Source of the DNA: an uncultured Chromatiales bacterium | GTDB taxonomy: Bacteria; Bacteroidota; Ignavibacteria; SZUA-365 | Length of the DNA stretch: 64,000 nt | Direction: 5' to 3' | Assembly: GCA_964371045.1 (NCBI GenBank) | Contig: CAYJMN010000002.1 | Span: forward strand, 60,959-124,958 | Part shown: piece by piece, positions 14,842 through 23,925 of the stretch | Layout: every line of letters begins with the position of its first letter | Numbering within the stretch: the stretch's first letter is position 1 | The notes under the pieces: model-generated | Databases searched by the model: none | What the model was told of the DNA's origin: nothing | Seen by the model: only the letters and a program-made list of their open reading frames with translations | Program-made: the position numbers and the translations under genes

Positions 14842-17800
14842 TTACTTCAGCAGGGTCATCTTGCGAGTCTGCACGAAGTTACCTGCAACCATCTTCACGA
14901 TGTAGTTGCCCGAAGGCACCTGAACACCGAGATCGTTGGTGGCATCCCAGACAACCTGGAACGCACCGGCATCGCGTGTTTCGTTGACGAGAGTCTTCAC
15001 ATGGGTGCCAAGGAGGTCATAGACCGCGATGGTAACCTGAGTCGACTTCGGCAGCGAGAAGTTGATGCTGGTGGTCGGGTTGAACGGATTCGGGTAGTTC
15101 TGACCGAGTGCGAATTCCGAAGGAACGCCTGTCTGAGGTGTGACATTAAGGATGCCAACCTTCCGAATTAACAAGCGGAATCCAGGACGGTTCTGCGGAT
15201 CTGCGTTCGGCGGGGATGACAGCGTAGCATAGAGCGGTCCAGACATAAGACCGAAGCTATTGTCAAAATCGCGAGCCGTGACATACCACACAACTGCCTG
15301 TTCTTTCGTAGTCGGCTGGCCAGAGATCTGGTCAATGATACCGGCGAGCTGTCCATGATTGGTCGTTAACTGCGCAAGATCACCATTGTTGTCGCTATCG
15401 AAGACCACAGAGCGGGTCCGACTTACCGCATCCACAAAGGTGATGTCGTAACGAACGACGTCGGTGTACGTTGCCGGGTTGAAGCGGGAGACCCGAATGT
15501 TAGTGTAAGGATCCTGCGGCACAGCTTTGACCCAAGTGAACAGTTCTACATTGGCGCCCTTCATCAGATCGATTGTACTGTTGTCGGCCGGCAATTGCAG
15601 AGCGAACGCATTGGGAGCGTGGTCGAGGATTTCATACGGGTTGGTCGAACCAGAGATCGACGGGTCGTTGGACTGGAAGGCTCTCACGAGCTGAAGCTCT
15701 TCACCCATGGAGGCGATGCGACGGATACGGGATGCCAGGAAGTAATTGGTCACACCGTTGATGAACACATCACCAGCCCAGATGTTGGAGAGACCAGGAC
15801 CGTTCGAATCGAATTCACCCGGGAAACGAGCGGTGAACGCGGTACGAACATTACGACCACTGACGACATTGAGATAACGATCGCGCGGGGCGACAATCAG
15901 CTCATAGCGACGGAGGAGGTAAACCTGATCGGGACTACCGGTCTGAGGATAAATTTCGACGAGGTAATTCGTCACCTCATCAGCCGTGAAGTTCATCTTG
16001 GCAGACTCCTGGTTGAGATTAGCAACCGTCGGTTTGACTTCGATGTACACGCCACGGTCGGCCTTCGTATGGATGATGCAAATAATTGCAACACCGTCCT
16101 TGAAGGCACTGGCCGGGATAGACCAGGTCGAATCGTCGATCTGGAGAAGCTTCGTACCGTCTTTCGTGATATATGCATAGGTGTAGCCATTGGGATCCGC
16201 GTTCCAGCTGCCCCTACTGGTGTCAGTATTGGCGAACGAGTTCTGGAGAACAAGCTCGGTAGCCGGGCTGTTCTTGTCCGGGCTATCCCAGTCACGAATG
16301 ATGTTACCGTTTTCGTCGCGAGCCGTCAGTGTGAAGCAAATTTCTTCACCGACGAGCGCGTTGATATCAGGATCACCAGCCATCGGTTCAATTTCAACAC
16401 CGCCGCCCTTGAGCTTGGTAAGCGCAAGACGGAAGTCGTTGGAACGGATCCAATGCGGCTGGCAGGAGGTCGGCGACCAGCGACTTGTATCACCGTTGAG
16501 TGCATCCGCCGGATTCGGCCAAATCCCTTCGAGGAACGGGAATTCGACTGTTTCCATCGGACGATCGTCGTTGACATTGAAGTCCTTGGTGTAGACACGC
16601 CAGATGATCTTGATGGAGTCGGCGCTGGTGCTGGTAGGATCGGAAGAGAAACCAGCGAACAGTGCGTCAAGCGTTGCGGTGGGAATCTGGATGCCCGTGG
16701 ACGTACCGGCGTTGATGACGACAATGGTGCCGACGGGGGCGCCCTTGCCAGCCGGGAACGTGCTTACCACTTCACCATACCACTGATAGCTCAGGGTATC
16801 GATCGTGCGGGTGGGATCCTTTTCCCATGTACGGGTTGTCGGATTGTAGATCAGGAACAGACCACCTTGGAGCGCTTGCTTGTCAAGGTTACGATCCTGG
16901 GCATTCGACCAGAGAATGGGAAGCGGCTGAGTACCATCGACGAATTCCGTGGCACCGTTCGGCGGCTGGATGGCCGTCGGAGCAGCGTACGGAGCGCGGT
17001 TGATGGAAATGATCAGCGGCTCGGTCGGAAGCGGATTGTTACGAACGGTAATACCGGCCGTATCGGAGTAGGTCTCAAGTCCTGCCATCTTGCTGAAGGC
17101 GCGCACAAACCAGAACACGCGGGTAACGATGCTGTCCTGATTCGGTTGCGGGAGCACGTTGGGACGGAAGATGAGTTCGCGAACCTTATCTCCGGAGAGG
17201 GTAAGAGTCGGGCTCTTGCCATCGTTGTCGGAGAGAATGCTGACAGTGCGGGTTGCGCCGCCAAAGGCGCCAAGACTGTCAATGATCGCGTACCACTCGT
17301 AACGAATAGTATCGTTCGGGTTGTTCATGGAAGGATCGGACCATTCAGCCCGTGCCCAGTTCAGGCGCAGGAAGTCATTTGCCAATCCATTGATCGGGTT
17401 GCCAAGAGAATCGAAGCAGTTACCGGTATGATCCATACGGAACAACGAAGTATTCTGCAACGTCGCTGTGCTCAGCGTGAACGGTCCGGGCGCGAACGGC
17501 ATCTTGATAGAGACCGGACGAACTGCGATGGCGTTGGCGGGAAGCAATCCATGACGGAGAGCCTGACCGGCACGTTCACCGACAGCGTCGCCGAGACGCT
17601 TGTCATCGGGCTTGATACCGACGAAGTCGTTGCGATTTCCCGCGCCGACGAGCGACAGGTTGTACAGAATAATCGAATCCTGACGGAGTTGGGTATTCTG
17701 CGGGAAGCCAACCGGACGAGCCTGGAAGTAACGGCCACCGGCTGCGATCTCGAGGTTACCGGCAGCGCCCATGGCATTCACATTCGTGAATTCCCATGTG

Positions 17801-23800: not shown

Positions 23801-23925
23801 GTCTGCTCGATGGTGCGTGTGATGTTGAAGAAGTCGCCCTTTACTGTACGGATCTGGGCATTCGCGCTCAATCCAAAGAGCAGCACGAGAGCCAGCACGG
23901 ACAGAAGAGTTAGGGTTTTCTTCAT
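14842..23925 (-). CDS. giant secreted/cell-surface protein (~3027 aa) with a T9SS C-terminal sorting domain; no recognisable catalytic or adhesin domain
   Basis: Signal peptide MKKTLTLLSVLALVLLFGLSANAQ at the internal Met (23923-23925). One uninterrupted ORF of more than 9 kb, rich in G/N/P/T/D. The C-terminus (...NYPNPFNPTTSINFSLPKSTQVTIAVYDLLGTHVKTLVNE...GNYIVKMVAGNFVQTRKMTLLK) is a canonical T9SS CTD. Confidence 0.85.
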   Translation of the reverse strand: MKKTLTLLSVLALVLLFGLSANAQIRTVKGDFFNITRTIEQTADSVTFIADTLTLFDSGGGVGNFNHNDSVAVFFVQNRFKIVNNMISQTVFDYVRVRIATTSTGMSLARQQYDGVITNTALPPQNDGAAAGRDVGLRPVYRNVGDIASSSPFNSDPSAIRQMLTFRVTNPTAAGDGIQIRNIFFKPNINNLLGLAVPPDTTKDTLRAYLLDGSSGNPLAYGTVIPSGQFSGGTDLAIVKLLPGTTRLLVWVKDSAQAVDAGEYIGSFGDYTRGRYFLGDDGLPFDPLNTAHQSFRPGQFRAFVGSPDPPILNPDYGMMIDGLPPERNPLKLSNLYQALAPAAFTEAGWYVGLNPNPVNGLIPPYRPGASNVAANPYQPGLVSSAVDTLRFLDAYGNRTWDRMTQPVLKALAYTISNPIPEDRTMYLRGMTAADDTVRHFGQLIYRRLAYTHADVGVNAGGVEDSVRIYAEAVINYSDPAGIPGTLQATGDTSGGFPRSGLVGLMPGAYRTQEAFVDGGARTNGPTWYFDAHDGNPFGERMPVDPLGVNSLPNTGSKIVVRPNIPRAIDILPTDQWKGTADNNYLRLDILMTDGYGNTVDDNEKFKFELSPFGELCATTNPFPYRLNGIFDSLINPISPIVVTGGNIDSGRVFVGTSNLGRNNRVFRAASGSNNIGPYRIRVRSTYAFNDRGSDVNDPNKLDLTPGIGFSHSNFIPDGSPNNNFGIWFGPGTGYNAKLGKNMGQTTSMDSTDVLWDGTGWTFFQGGQPRIELVIGRDESFVVGRVGNYRNPIFDKLYIRITDIFGNPKDIAPYFYPNTNRVFVELPDNKLYYPPITGAKRFYASVSANVANSGAGGIDNPEPVLDPVTGQVLDAVLVYVAPGNTLPGIAGDLPAFLGYNAVRFYLRAPQNVTKLSLAGTDVVRLIAHLRLETIPGVCDFSIQSAIGEVSVIPDVASTVEVFKSTGKPQGTTVPLEGWGPGTVADLLAQGYPTGTPRNAAESNEFYRGYFFRSTGAEVQPSTSPDFPTVMEPMGYSDQGIGSFQASEVDLDHDATAPIPMDTVVVSEHNKQVRVVARLLDRFQNPVGGRLVKFFVESETVPVTPPKTQLQSNAQRGGFGEMGTSFITDDTLKRTTIGDTAQAGWVSTYFISGRVGWQIIRIAMTPDTLAFDLVPNLGSNLGEGTAVGPSKRGFAPRVIIPIYQKSDTTVRVEIFPYTAAATSPIPLPVDLVKLQVLEHHSVYQDGGASIAAINNYAPKFFAYSANPLAQEDRATHYNRVANTNIRPYIPDTLNLVNSDPLDVNSITAGRTVTLLAREFDRFHNLVDNFSEAEDTARVRFRMWGDNWTSPPAPYGGTPGTVAPIGNWTRDEYGPMRKARYRHTKVGNLVYGVHINQTAFFTALEYPTPKLANATVFFEATATAVLLGQGPVNIHRDTVKVVSVVKEPTRFDILRTGQDFRALGPGLGTVGVYELTGPPEARAILIPPVVNISIPEGADPQLHGLTDQGVDNILISQVYKRNVSPKPVGKYEIVNEDNVPLDKDGDALFLPDGSFNPDFERDPYSNLVVLQKLDAFNNLNPQTSPNDRYNDLNNDQGGKVTVPAGARRDGTIFDITIAGGGDGIGTSGVGANRDDRRPVLMRITPIWENDPPTGGNPYIVANQPGQTRQYGRLFADSVYTYQGTISPLRTAATRAEFMGTRTDRGNPGWYKLTGEGDRITRIGVGFWIPEDFLRAGLPHRPLPPLNTFRTRFAVGLNGGADATGAVFGDFNRRVALLGQAFGRELSVGGVANLTFAPGAFLRIVDSTAEQVIDVRVVDPNLLDMAGNTVDDTCSYDQGKFTVVRRVNRLDPGNPLFHLDDTYYDANVTDIQGPNMSVGRIGELPIQRTNRATHGLMVAATRQFWGPSSYGRLRHTFVVVPYRIAFTSIFPSSFDYTANTHDKSTLPVGILPVQADIDTLPRVSPMYYQDPYGTPTSAFEIFSRLYGQINHGATEDQIPNNVGTPYARPDTIFRDQWYTYAVTPYDRYGNLNNRDSMYVNLGTRHTTWEFTNVNAMGAAGNLEIAAGGRYFQARPVGFPQNTQLRQDSIILYNLSLVGAGNRNDFVGIKPDDKRLGDAVGERAGQALRHGLLPANAIAVRPVSIKMPFAPGPFTLSTATLQNTSLFRMDHTGNCFDSLGNPINGLANDFLRLNWARAEWSDPSMNNPNDTIRYEWYAIIDSLGAFGGATRTVSILSDNDGKSPTLTLSGDKVRELIFRPNVLPQPNQDSIVTRVFWFVRAFSKMAGLETYSDTAGITVRNNPLPTEPLIISINRAPYAAPTAIQPPNGATEFVDGTQPLPILWSNAQDRNLDKQALQGGLFLIYNPTTRTWEKDPTRTIDTLSYQWYGEVVSTFPAGKGAPVGTIVVINAGTSTGIQIPTATLDALFAGFSSDPTSTSADSIKIIWRVYTKDFNVNDDRPMETVEFPFLEGIWPNPADALNGDTSRWSPTSCQPHWIRSNDFRLALTKLKGGGVEIEPMAGDPDINALVGEEICFTLTARDENGNIIRDWDSPDKNSPATELVLQNSFANTDTSRGSWNADPNGYTYAYITKDGTKLLQIDDSTWSIPASAFKDGVAIICIIHTKADRGVYIEVKPTVANLNQESAKMNFTADEVTNYLVEIYPQTGSPDQVYLLRRYELIVAPRDRYLNVVSGRNVRTAFTARFPGEFDSNGPGLSNIWAGDVFINGVTNYFLASRIRRIASMGEELQLVRAFQSNDPSISGSTNPYEILDHAPNAFALQLPADNSTIDLMKGANVELFTWVKAVPQDPYTNIRVSRFNPATYTDVVRYDITFVDAVSRTRSVVFDSDNNGDLAQLTTNHGQLAGIIDQISGQPTTKEQAVVWYVTARDFDNSFGLMSGPLYATLSSPPNADPQNRPGFRLLIRKVGILNVTPQTGVPSEFALGQNYPNPFNPTTSINFSLPKSTQVTIAVYDLLGTHVKTLVNETRDAGAFQVVWDATNDLGVQVPSGNYIVKMVAGNFVQTRKMTLLK

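Follow-up and report, generated by a model that had tools for sequence, protein, structure and literature searches.

Two questions are raised by a protein of 3,027 aa that is encoded on the minus strand of the 64,000-nucleotide stretch of DNA analysed here (the window): is such a long reading frame a genuine gene, and which role could its product play at the cell surface? The uninterrupted ORF spans 14842..24069. The supported start is the ATG at 23925, from which the sequence begins with MKKTLTLLSVLALVLLFGLSANA|QIRT. This ATG and the preceding Shine-Dalgarno sequence are kept in orthologues, whereas the 48 further in-frame codons upstream are not.

14842..23925, minus strand: CDS of the giant gene, 3,027 aa plus the stop codon at 14842-14844; orthologues share start and length
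23935..23939, minus strand: Shine-Dalgarno sequence AGGAG, 9 nt before the ATG; invariant in the alignments

The gene and its transcription signals

Homologues fall into about 29 clusters of 50-100 % identity, which stem exclusively from MAGs of the FCB group; the full-length ones comprise 2,939-3,129 aa. Wherever a locus is long enough for the gene order to be read, it is TAL-GcvT-FtsK-LolA-giant-M20-DapB-DapA. In the window, LolA and FtsK lie upstream, and an ArgE/DapE-family M20 deacylase, DapB, DapA and an LD-carboxypeptidase follow downstream on the same strand. The giant gene is a single-copy core gene of one uncultured bacterial lineage. For the notion that the ORF is spurious, degenerating or the product of misassembly, no support was found beyond the general suspicion that very long ORFs without domains attract. 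It is contradicted by intact orthologous ORFs of ~3,000 aa in more than 20 independent assemblies, which exclude a frameshift artefact, by a dN/dS of ~0.15 along the full length and in each gene quarter, and by the conservation of start codon, Shine-Dalgarno sequence, promoter elements and terminator. This notion is refuted and its probability negligible; the single unbroken frame of more than 9 kb proposed in the initial annotation is real.

The following transcription signals flank the gene:

14794..14821, minus strand: intrinsic terminator whose 12-bp stem has 9 G-C pairs and is followed by TTTTTAT, 20 nt past the stop codon
24092..24120, minus strand: sigma-70-like candidate TTGTTT-N17-TATATT, inside the sigma-54 leader
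24181..24195, minus strand: sigma-54-type -24/-12 element TGGCAGTGTTTTTGC, 270 nt upstream of the ATG; conserved
24246..24259, minus strand: inverted repeat GTCA-N6-TGAC, 64 nt upstream of the -24 element

The giant gene does not share a transcript with the dap genes, the hairpin and its T-run lying 20 nt past its stop codon. The sigma-54-type element is the sole match in the window, and all 22 syntenic loci carry its relaxed pattern at the corresponding position, embedded in divergent DNA. The strict pattern is present in 17 loci and is the sole match within 12-29 kb in 16 of them (the remaining one, L016, has a second). The inverted repeat, exact in 17 of the 22 syntenic loci, is a candidate site for an enhancer-binding protein, and a sigma-54 activator gene is present within the window. 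Together with the terminator, these elements suggest that the giant gene is its own transcription unit. Alignments of 12-16 orthologous regions show no variation in the TATATT and TTG of the sigma-70-like candidate, and this element may act as a promoter as well. The gene would thus be transcribed alone from the conserved sigma-54-type promoter and possibly also from the sigma-70-like one.

Export signals and modular architecture

Both ends of the protein carry export signals, and the part in between can be divided into a head, a central region and a C-terminal array.

23857..23925, minus strand: Sec signal peptide, aa 1-23 (MKKTLTLLSVLALVLLFGLSANA|Q), read from the translation; conserved in orthologues
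21661..23856, minus strand: N-terminal head module, aa 24 to ~755 (paralogue alignment, HMMER, AF2)
17509..21660, minus strand: central region, aa ~756-2139, D-x-[FY]-[GQHN]-N modules (motif statistics)
17029..17496, minus strand: D1, aa ~2144-2299, beta-sandwich with short helices, repeat type A (AF2 model)
16519..17016, minus strand: D2, aa ~2304-2469, repeat type A (AF2 model)
16024..16461, minus strand: D3, aa ~2489-2634, Big_1-like beta-sandwich, motif DENGN at 2537 (AF2, Foldseek)
15634..16011, minus strand: D4, aa ~2639-2764, Big_1-like beta-sandwich, motif DRYLN at 2682 (AF2, Foldseek)
15139..15621, minus strand: D5, aa ~2769-2929, repeat type A, weak SusE-like signal
14845..15111, minus strand: T9SS type A C-terminal sorting domain, aa ~2939-3027 (TIGR04183 and fold match)

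The signal peptide contains no lipobox cysteine in the translation. TIGR04183 scores 34.9 bits (cut-off 23) at aa 2944-3023; the sorting domain is further matched by Pfam FlgD_ig (38.8 bits), while PF18962 with 26.5 bits falls slightly below its cut-off of 27. The modelled fold of this domain matches FlgD and the sorting domains of PorU, PorZ and mirolase. The protein had been annotated as a giant Sec/T9SS cargo, and these data agree with that assignment. Type A cargo is processed by PorU and then attached to A-LPS (PMC10202324). With T/E/D/N|G/A/S taken as the PorU cleavage motif (PMC10202324), T2932|G2933 is a candidate site.

The initial annotation had seen no domain besides the sorting domain. 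At the level of sequence this is correct: no other Pfam or NCBIfam family reaches its threshold, a family profile finds no relative among PDB sequences except FlgD (over the sorting domain), and BLASTP of the protein against itself reveals no internal repeat at E<=10. Profile searches of 5.8 billion proteins retrieved only the protein's own family and matches confined to the sorting domain, and the giant protein appears to represent a new family.

Structure modelling gave a different picture of the C-terminal part. The AF2 model of aa 2140-3027 (pLDDT 74.9) comprises five beta-sandwich domains and the sorting domain. Three of the five are detectable as internal repeats: in hhalign, residues 2204-2276 of D1 align with 2821-2884 at 93 %, and residues 2205-2252 align with 2376-2423 (D2) at 62 %. 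A Big_1 match with an E of 7.5e-6 and 26.4 bits, below the cut-off of 34.9, was found in the C-terminal region of the orthologues P0017 and P0019; judged by position rather than by alignment, it probably corresponds to D3. Foldseek returned 20 PDB matches at E<=1e-3 for the C-terminal model, all of them Ig/FN3/MG arrays with 7-15 % identity. The C-terminal 888 aa are thus modelled as a string of five Ig/FN3/MG-like domains followed by the sorting domain. The protein is beta-rich, as had been proposed, but the stated lack of an Ig-type tandem-repeat architecture does not hold: known repeat domains form an array over roughly a third of the protein, and plausibly over another large portion.

The top Foldseek matches are A2ML1 (2.3e-9), CD109 (1.9e-8) and TEP1r, and the MG arrays of alpha-2-macroglobulins and thioester proteins are the best structural matches for the string. 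Could the protein then be an alpha-2-macroglobulin-like protease trap or a protective shield of macroglobulin (MG) domains? Identities of 8-12 % and TM-scores of ~0.1 limit the similarity to a generic beta-sandwich string. Furthermore, the protein has only 7 Cys and no CxEQ thioester motif, lacks A2M-specific domains, matches no A2M or bacterial MG family of Pfam, and uses another secretion route; the bacterial alpha-2-macroglobulins known so far are periplasmic lipoproteins and not T9SS cargo. Such a function is very improbable.

In the central region, D-x-[FY]-[GQHN]-N modules are located at aa 802, 1079, 1318, 1571, (1820) and 2022. Seven occurrences compare with 0.25 expected and none of 20,000 shuffles reached seven, the expression having been drawn up after sight of the sequence. 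The Big_1-like motif D-x-[FY]-G-N recurs across the remainder of the protein; sub-threshold Big_1 matches land on differing modules in different orthologues, and a weak one is located at aa 1065-1105. Residues 748-953 are predicted to be all-beta (AF2, pLDDT 65-87), and hhalign aligns aa 1990-2092 to D4 at 40-44 %. It is plausible to assume that the central region consists of further beta-sandwich modules, of which aa 1224-2139 lie outside the models. AF2 model 1 has a pLDDT of 43.5, two thirds of the protein are without a confident model, and the fold of aa 24-2139 is one that we infer.

The head is also found alone in short paralogues; for example, an 840-aa paralogue shares 47 % identity with aa 23-754 and continues with its own sorting domain. 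AF2 confidence across the head is low except for aa ~63-188. An exhaustive HMMER search of 1.84 billion representatives gave no relative outside the family at E<=1e-10 among the matches listed, where weaker ones would be masked by sorting-domain matches. As judged from these searches, the N-terminal ~750 aa are a true orphan. The head belongs to the more conserved parts, has the lowest dN of the four gene quarters and is dense in invariant D, E, H, R, N and G residues. These properties, and the existence of a protein that consists of head and sorting domain only, would be expected of a secreted or surface-bound enzyme whose head is a novel catalytic domain (e.g. polysaccharide- or protein-degrading) and whose Ig-like domains are spacers or carbohydrate-binding modules. 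However, no enzyme family of Pfam or NCBIfam and no enzyme among the PDB sequences was matched, even with family profiles, and the HMMER search listed no relative outside the family at E<=1e-10; a spacer of more than 2,000 aa would be extreme, and no polysaccharide-utilisation genes adjoin the giant gene. An enzymatic function is therefore improbable.

Conservation, codon usage and sequons

Compared to locus L003, the dN of the giant gene (0.13) is lower than that of FtsK (0.20), LolA (0.24), DapA (0.26) and DapB (0.39). Its dS of 0.84 is about half that of the neighbours (at least 1.6). The ENC of 42.8 is the lowest of 21 genes in the window (others 46.1-61.0), the direction of the bias being judged without ribosomal-protein genes of the same genome as a yardstick, since none lie in the window. 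In 18 of 23 loci, no syntenic neighbour has an ENC as low as that of the giant gene. It is nearly devoid of the codons GGG, GGA, CGA, CGG, AGA, AGG, ATA and CCA and favours GGT, CGT, CCG, TTC, AAC, ATC and AAG. Low ENC and low dS are pointers to a presumably high abundance of the protein. The mature protein is acidic (pI 5.35). The bias towards G/N/P/T/D that had been called strong is present but moderate (G 9.1, T 8.2, P 7.5, D 7.0 and N 6.8 %); K, E and C are depleted.

The Bacteroidota O-glycosylation sequon D-(S/T)-(A/I/L/V/M/T) is enriched three-fold, with 33 sites versus 11.0 +/- 3.2 expected (z 6.9); the definition of the sequon and the precedent of the Tannerella forsythia S-layer are taken from PMC8550257 and PMC4175972. 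As controls, ten other residues in the first position yielded ratios of 0.7-1.25, and D[ST] before a residue that the sequon does not permit was depleted, with a ratio of 0.56. At least 80 % of the orthologues keep 31 of the 33 sites as sequons, compared to 17 % of 138 control triplets. Conservation at every sequon position also exceeds that of the same residue class in other parts of the protein. Note that the cytoplasmic RecQ of the window is also enriched (7 sequons versus 2.3 expected), so the enrichment could have a structural cause. The pattern suggests that the protein may be glycosylated.

From these data, we consider evenly balanced between true and false the reading that we favour, namely that the protein is an abundant, O-glycosylated, surface-anchored structural protein, i.e. 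a component of a coat, a fibre or an S-layer-like assembly. The ~330-kDa precursor would be exported by Sec and O-glycosylated in the periplasm at the ~30 conserved sites. After recognition of the type A sorting domain and passage through the SprA translocon, a PorU-type sortase would remove this domain and join the new C-terminus to a glycolipid of the anionic-LPS type. Through this linkage, the mature ~318-kDa chain would extend outwards from the outer membrane, with its divergent Ig/FN3-like domains strung one after another and the conserved orphan head of ~750 aa at the distal end. Cleavage, anchoring and the structural role are thus predicted. The S-layer-like option of the initial annotation is favoured by codon bias, sequons and housekeeping-level conservation; a sigma-54 promoter implies conditional expression and fits a constitutive S-layer less well.

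Comparison with known surface proteins

SprA, which had been noted ~9 kb away on the opposite strand, is indeed encoded there, and its vicinity to the giant gene is syntenic.

33156-40646, plus strand: SprA (TIGR04189, 1,019.6 bits), 9.2 kb from the start codon of the giant gene

The protein might accordingly be a surface or gliding-motility adhesin like SprB or RemA of Flavobacterium johnsoniae, with an Ig-like stalk and the head as ligand-binding tip, perhaps moved by the gliding machinery. Tandem Ig-like arrays are equally typical of adhesins. SprB (6,497 aa, type B) and RemA (type A) are likewise very large T9SS-exported surface proteins with repeated beta-rich modules, and the adjoining LolA matches the NCBIfam model LolA1_Flavo. 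RemA shows that an adhesin can carry a type A sorting domain (PMC10202324). In contrast to SprB, Pfam and NCBIfam detect neither SprB repeats nor a type B sorting domain in the giant protein, and no sprF/porP-like gene adjoins it. Since SprA is the general T9SS translocon, its proximity, taken before as a hint at gliding, carries little weight. Lectins and other known adhesin domains were absent from the results of the profile searches. The protein hardly varies in length, its number of repeats is constant, and length and sequence are conserved at the housekeeping level; a dN below that of neighbouring housekeeping genes is unlike typical adhesins, and strong codon bias and conserved sequons are unexpected for a low-copy adhesin. 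We rate an adhesin as rather unlikely, though a serious contender; the protein resembles an abundant, glycosylated coat of the cell surface more closely than it does a common, rapidly evolving adhesin.

For such a coat, TfsA and TfsB of T. forsythia are a close precedent. They are abundant as S-layer proteins and are thought to be built of Ig-like beta-sandwich domains. Like the giant protein, they combine a Sec signal peptide with a type A sorting domain, and their export needs the T9SS (PMC4175972; PMC10202324). A surface protein with many D(S/T)(A/I/L/V/M/T) sequons is a further common trait (PMC8550257). In contrast, the family profiles detected no homology to TfsA/TfsB among the 5.8 billion proteins. 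The giant protein is two to three times larger, is encoded by a single gene instead of a pair, and has the orphan 750-aa head and a sigma-54-type promoter; a lattice is putative.

A modelled array of tandem Ig/FN3-like beta-sandwiches is also shared with Big_1 proteins (invasin/intimin-type), Bap, the LapA extender, RbmA and mastigoneme fibres. The recurring D-x-[FY]-G-N-x-V resembles the Big_1 signature and several modules give sub-threshold Big_1 matches, but none reaches the gathering score given above. Compared to the near-identical repeats of such fibres, the modules of the giant protein are highly divergent from each other, and the upstream ones recur with a period of 200-280 aa, about twice the length of one Ig domain.

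Conservation, start and export signals of the giant gene

The giant gene is a single ORF on the minus strand with a maximal extent of window 14842..24069. The reading frame is uninterrupted, as the initial annotation had it, and the orthologous ORFs are likewise free of frameshifts. The best supported start is the ATG at 23925, which leads to the N-terminus MKKTLTLLSVLALVLLFGLSANA|QIRT and a length of 3,027 aa. An AGGAG precedes this ATG by 9 nt, the Shine-Dalgarno sequence is invariant in the alignments, and all orthologues have the same MKK N-terminus. A further in-frame ATG at 24069 adds 48 codons (window 23926-24069, minus strand) that overlap the conserved leader. 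The DNA of this extension is poorly conserved between orthologues, and it is therefore possible that gene callers have over-extended some of the starts.

The two export signals that had been read from the sequence were both found again. The Sec signal peptide consists, according to the translation, of MKK, a 17-residue hydrophobic core and ANA|Q, and is conserved in the orthologues. The type A T9SS sorting domain (TIGR04183, NCBIfam) scored 34.9 bits against a cut-off of 23 and occupies aa 2944-3023 of 3027; PF18962 reached 26.5 bits against a cut-off of 27. The modelled fold of this domain matches the sorting domains of FlgD, PorU, PorZ and mirolase. Type A cargo is processed by PorU and attached to A-LPS (PMC10202324), and one candidate cleavage site agrees with the motif described there:

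aa 2932/2933, candidate PorU-type cleavage motif T|G

The mature chain has a mass of 318.5 kDa, a pI of 5.35 and 7 Cys. In its composition, G, T, P, D and N are over-represented and K, E and C are scarce; the direction of the bias is thus as previously noted, but its extent is moderate and not strong.

The neighbourhood is also as first described. FtsK and LolA are encoded upstream, and an ArgE/DapE-family M20 deacylase, DapB, DapA and an LD-carboxypeptidase downstream; naming the M20 gene dapE is an assumption, since no equivalog cut-off was reached. The T9SS machinery is represented in the same genome by the translocon SprA/Sov (window 33156-40646; TIGR04189, 1,019.6 bits against a cut-off of 200), the gene of which lies 9.2 kb from the giant gene on the opposite strand; PorU, PorV, PorZ and GldKLMN fall outside the window.

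A search of 5.8 billion proteins yielded about 28-29 clusters of the giant-protein family, with 50-100 % identity and full-length members of 2,939-3,129 aa. Beyond these clusters, only proteins sharing the sorting domain were found in this set, and a profile of 25 family members reached no further. P0186 (E 4e-31) was rejected as a relative because its sorting domain alone matches. When one genome per GTDB species was searched, 27 loci with the giant gene were detected. All of them belong to MAGs labelled as Bacteroidota, Ignavibacteria or Chlorobiota bacterium, and in a few cases as Chromatiales or Ectothiorhodospiraceae. Six fully syntenic contigs (L010, L014, L016, L017, L018 and L021) were deposited as "Ectothiorhodospiraceae" or "Chromatiales" MAGs. 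These labels are probably taxonomic errors, as suggested by the FCB-type gene content (SprA, T9SS cargo).

In every locus of sufficient length, the gene order is TAL-GcvT-FtsK-LolA-giant-M20-DapB-DapA-LD-carboxypeptidase. The dN/dS of the giant gene is about 0.15 in each quarter and slightly higher at the C-terminal end. Pairwise values refer to L003, the closest syntenic genome compared as DNA (81 % identity). The dN of the giant gene is 0.13, compared to 0.20 for FtsK, 0.24 for LolA, 0.26 for DapA, 0.35 for M20 and 0.39 for DapB, and is equalled by that of GcvT (0.14). The giant gene is genuine, an artefact being excluded, and belongs to the conserved single-copy core of a narrow lineage. 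Variable repeat adhesins do not usually show this pattern of conservation. All known genomes of this uncultured lineage carry the 9-kb gene in a neighbourhood of housekeeping envelope genes, where it evolves as slowly as FtsK or GcvT.

The envelope-biogenesis cluster around the giant gene (window 24354-40646) comprises LolA, FtsK, LptG, LptF and SprA and is syntenic across the lineage. GcvT and transaldolase are interspersed, as is PTPS in the locus L001. The LolA of the window matches the NCBIfam model LolA1_Flavo.

Domain architecture of the giant protein

At the level of sequence, the initial claim of a protein with no recognizable domains holds except for the sorting domain. Pfam detected only the C-terminal FlgD_ig/Por_Secre_tail region and a Big_1 trace of 13.4 bits. 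For three orthologues and the family majority consensus, only sub-threshold matches to Big_1, SusE and Ig_GEX2_N were obtained, and a profile search of the PDB with the family returned only FlgD, over the sorting domain. Self-BLASTP revealed no internal repeats at E<=10. Comparing windows of the family alignment by means of hhalign did uncover repeats near the C-terminus: aa 2204-2276 match aa 2821-2884 with a probability of 93 %, and the same region matches aa 2376-2423 with 62 %. A weaker pair links aa 2005-2069 to aa 2665-2731 (44 %). The remaining pairs from sliding-window and motif-centred comparisons do not exceed 44 % and are mostly in register, which is biased in the motif-centred windows because these were picked by motif. 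By this sequence criterion, only the C-terminal repeats appear convincing.

The architecture of the C-terminal third was deduced from an AlphaFold2 model of aa 2140-3027, which was based on 27 sequences and has a mean pLDDT of 74.9. It predicts five beta-sandwich domains followed by the sorting domain. Borders were taken from the secondary structure and the confidence profile of the model.

Modelled beta-sandwich domains of the C-terminal third
aa ~2144-2299, D1, repeat type detected by hhalign
aa ~2304-2469, D2, repeat type detected by hhalign
aa ~2489-2634, D3, carries the D-x-[FY]-[GQHN]-N motif
aa ~2639-2764, D4, carries the D-x-[FY]-[GQHN]-N motif
aa ~2769-2929, D5, repeat type detected by hhalign, followed by the sorting domain

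Foldseek compared this model with the PDB and gave 20 matches at E<=1e-3, all of which are tandem Ig, FN3 or macroglobulin-domain proteins with 7-15 % identity. Among them are A2ML1 (2.3e-9), CD109, the Vpr fibril, a mastigoneme, cytokine receptors, a protocadherin, TEP1, GbpA and Fabs; the FN3 modules of CbhA (1.0e-3) and RbmA (1.3e-3) fall just above the threshold. As modelled, the C-terminal third is therefore an ordinary array of Ig/FN3/MG type, and the earlier statement that an Ig-type tandem-repeat architecture is absent does not stand for this part of the chain. The matches to macroglobulin-domain proteins bring a macroglobulin-like reading into view. An alpha-2-macroglobulin/thioester protein was rejected as an identity, since the chain contains no CxEQ motif and only 7 Cys and has no A2M match in Pfam.

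At aa ~2489-2764, the model and its Ig/FN3/MG structural matches indicate an Ig-like beta-sandwich fold. In this respect the protein resembles the Big_1 (invasin/intimin) family, but the gathering score of PF02369 (34.9) was missed by the window protein (13.4 bits), the orthologues (at most 26.4 bits) and the consensus (11.9 bits). The sub-threshold matches of the orthologues P0017 and P0019 (E 7.5e-6, aa ~2591-2643) correspond by position to the D3 region, and that of P0026 (E 0.002, 1045-1082) to the module at aa 1079.

The motif D-x-[FY]-[GQHN]-N recurs behind a hydrophobic strand at aa 393, 593, 802, 1079, 1318, 1571 and 2022, with a spacing of 200-280 aa, and looser copies are found at aa 1820, 2172, 2537 and 2682. 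The expected number of copies is 0.25, whereas seven were observed, a count that was not reached in any of 20,000 shuffles; the corresponding P-value is optimistic, because the expression was written after the sequence had been seen. In the family alignment, most D, G and N positions of the motif fall into columns that are invariant or conserved to at least 90 %, and these columns cover the copies at 1571, 1820 and 2172 less fully. The first part of the chain (aa 24-1223) was modelled from a 25-sequence alignment with a mean pLDDT of 43.5 and is usable only at aa ~63-188 and ~748-953, the latter segment being all-beta and moderately confident. Foldseek found nothing at E<=1e-3 for this model, with very low TM-scores, and is uninformative here. 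From the recurring motif, the all-beta segment 748-953, a weak homology of aa 1990-2092 to D4 detected by hhalign and the Big_1 traces, we infer that aa 756-2139 may also form an Ig-like array. The initial reading was to be refuted by a plain array of familiar repeat domains; such an array is predicted by modelling for the C-terminal third and presumed for the centre.

The N-terminal head (aa 24 to ~755) differs in character. In most comparisons its dN is below that of the other three quarters, and it has a high density of invariant columns; the single most conserved stretch of the family alignment is aa 1001-1200. AlphaFold2 gave a pLDDT of 20-45 over most of the head. Stand-alone heads of 35-52 % identity occur outside the syntenic locus in three MAGs, within proteins of 840-926 aa that combine the head module with a small domain and a type A sorting domain of their own:

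L025 5105-7627, L026 9342-11864 and L029 2045-4822, short paralogues P0033, P0034, P0035 and P0037

In the 925-aa variant (P0034, P0035), the C-terminus is instead a glyoxalase/VOC-type PF00903 domain, possibly owing to a gene fusion or to an error in gene calling. A profile search for deepening the head alignment ended with 7 proteins in all. With HMMER, the head profile identified 6 proteins at E<=1e-30 among 1.84 billion representatives, namely 5 family members (2 already known and 3 from the query alignment) and a fragment of 173 aa that matches within the head. All other matches listed are confined to the pre-sorting and sorting domains of the profile. As the profile contained these domains of the paralogues, it drew about 32,000 sorting-domain matches, with listed matches extending to about E<=1e-9, and more distant homologues of the head may lie concealed beneath them. 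The head is a candidate for a new fold.

Control elements, codon usage and O-glycosylation sequons

Behind its stop codon, the giant gene has a strong intrinsic terminator. Between lolA and the giant gene lies a spacer of 428 nt, which is mostly unalignable between orthologues but contains four conserved blocks. The gene is accordingly predicted to be a transcription unit of its own with conserved control elements.

Conserved elements ahead of the giant gene (window 24092-24259, minus strand; orthologous positions in the loci L001-L022 and L028)
GTCA-N6-TGAC inverted repeat, 64 nt upstream of the -24 element
24195..24181, minus strand, sigma-54-type -24/-12 element TGGCAGTGTTTTTGC (pattern match TGGCAGTGTTTTTGCA at 24195..24180), the sole match in the window
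TTGnTT-N17-TATATT box
AGGAG-N9-ATG ribosome binding site

The sigma-54-type element has the canonical spacing of -24 GG and -12 GC (TGGCAC-N5-TTGCW). Its relaxed form is present at the same place in 22/22 syntenic loci, and the strict form in 17, each of which has a match about 250-350 nt ahead of where the giant gene is annotated to start. For 16 of the 17 there is no other match within 12-29 kb, and L016 contains a second one. The inverted repeat is exact in 17/22 loci and fits the form TGT-N10-ACA, which we take to be that of NifA-type activator sites; this is a lead only. The short paralogues have neither the sigma-54 element nor the inverted repeat. The window also encodes a sigma-54-dependent response regulator of the NtrC/AtoC type (2373-3749, minus strand) with receiver, AAA+ and HTH_8 domains, from which it follows that the organism uses sigma-54 activators; rpoN is not located within the window. 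RNAalifold predicted no pairs for the leader of about 250 nt, Rfam gave no match in the window, and a simple sigma-70 scan found no more sites than in shuffled sequence.

Of 21 genes called with confidence in the window, the giant gene has the strongest codon bias, with an ENC (lower values meaning stronger bias) of 42.8 compared to 46.1-61.0. The ENC is 41-44 in all four quarters, and in 18/23 loci the orthologue has the lowest value among its syntenic neighbours. The codons GGG, GGA, CGA, CGG, AGA, AGG, ATA and CCA are hardly used, and the preferred ones are GGT, CGT, CCG, TTC, AAC, ATC and AAG. The GC3 of 0.651 is close to that of the genes on the lolA/ftsK/sprA side (0.646-0.685) and above that of the dap-side genes (0.525-0.598). 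The bias is therefore not simply a GC3 shift. Furthermore, dS to L003 is 0.84, compared to at least 1.6 for the neighbours. A low ENC together with a reduced dS is the pattern of high expression under translational selection. The codon pattern, which is uncalibrated against ribosomal-protein genes of the same genome, suggests that the giant gene is highly expressed. Over window 14000-24000, the plus-strand GC skew is +0.05 to +0.11 in the giant gene and negative in flanking genes of the same strand, which is attributed to the preference for C-ending codons and the Pro/Thr-rich composition.

The general O-glycosylation sequon of Bacteroidota is D-(S/T)-(A/I/L/V/M/T) (PMC8550257). The giant protein contains 33 sequons compared to 11.0 +/- 3.2 expected (z 6.9), a number reached in 0/5,000 shuffles. 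Ten control first residues gave ratios of 0.7-1.25, and the enrichment is thus specific to Asp in the first position; D[ST] combinations with a non-permitted third residue are depleted, with a ratio of 0.56. As many as 31/33 sites are kept as sequons in at least 80 % of the orthologues, compared to 17 % of 138 control triplets. Conservation inside the sequons exceeds that elsewhere for D (0.97 vs 0.76), S/T (0.95 vs 0.70) and the +2 residue (0.95 vs 0.81). The enrichment recurs in all orthologues and in the short paralogues, but these observations are not independent because the sites are shared. No enrichment was found in SprA, the TonB-dependent receptor, OmpA and FtsK of the window; RecQ is enriched (7 vs 2.3 expected), which is a warning about small numbers. 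Taken at sequence level, the giant protein shows signs of an abundant O-glycoprotein.

Possible role at the cell surface

Most economically, the giant protein can be read as an abundant component of a coat, a fibre or an S-layer-like structure, O-glycosylated, exported through the T9SS and anchored to the outer membrane. The processed C-terminus would anchor the protein to the outer membrane, and a long chain of Ig-like domains would project from the surface with the conserved orphan head at its tip. Other possible readings are, in descending order, an adhesin, an enzyme and a macroglobulin-like protein. With regard to the first of these, the giant protein differs from SprB-type gliding adhesins. 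SprB repeats (a Pfam family) were found neither in the window protein nor in three orthologues or the family consensus, and the type B sorting domain (TIGR04131/PF13585) has no match in the window protein; in one orthologue, CHU_C reached 21 bits against a cut-off of 27, beneath the type A match. No gene of the sprF/porP family lies beside the giant gene, the neighbours being LolA and the M20 deacylase.

TfsA and TfsB are T9SS-dependent S-layer glycoproteins (PMC4175972). As judged by its sequons, the giant protein is similarly rich in D(S/T)(A/I/L/V/M/T) sites. Single-sequence and family-profile searches of the 5.8 billion proteins detected no homology to TfsA/TfsB, and the giant protein is therefore not a member of that family, though it may work alike. 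A far more specific proposal, which we regard as unlikely, is that it is the monomer of a previously unknown T9SS-dependent S-layer or sheath: a single, heavily O-glycosylated 318-kDa chain, whose new-fold head would drive lattice or fibre assembly, whose expression would be switched on by a sigma-54 enhancer-binding protein, and which would be a lineage-defining envelope component in an uncultured Ignavibacteria/Kapabacteria-like clade.

Giant type A T9SS surface proteins of Ig-like domains are already known as a kind, and nothing found on the giant gene so far lies outside known biology. The family itself is undescribed and confined to one uncultured clade, and its combination of housekeeping-level conservation, strong codon bias, conserved sequons and an equally conserved sigma-54 promoter is unusual for such proteins. 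T9SS cargo has mostly been studied in a few cultured Bacteroidota. If the giant protein is the major surface coat, it defines what the cells show to their environment and to phages, may serve as a lineage marker, extends T9SS-dependent S-layer biology beyond Tannerella and links surface-coat expression to sigma-54 control. If none of this is true, it is one more large Ig-repeat surface protein. The "domain-free giant" has become a specific hypothesis that is open to a metaproteomic test.

Two further proteins of the window belong to this context. An 895-aa protein (60668-63355, plus strand) with choice-of-anchor D (114.8 bits), ASH, HYDIN-like Ig and DUF1573 domains is probably a second surface-associated protein rich in beta-sandwiches; no match to a T9SS sorting domain was seen in it. 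The gene at 4225-5808 (minus strand) encodes an outer-membrane beta-barrel with TSP3 calcium-binding repeats and an OmpA peptidoglycan-binding domain, and its codon bias is weak (ENC 58).
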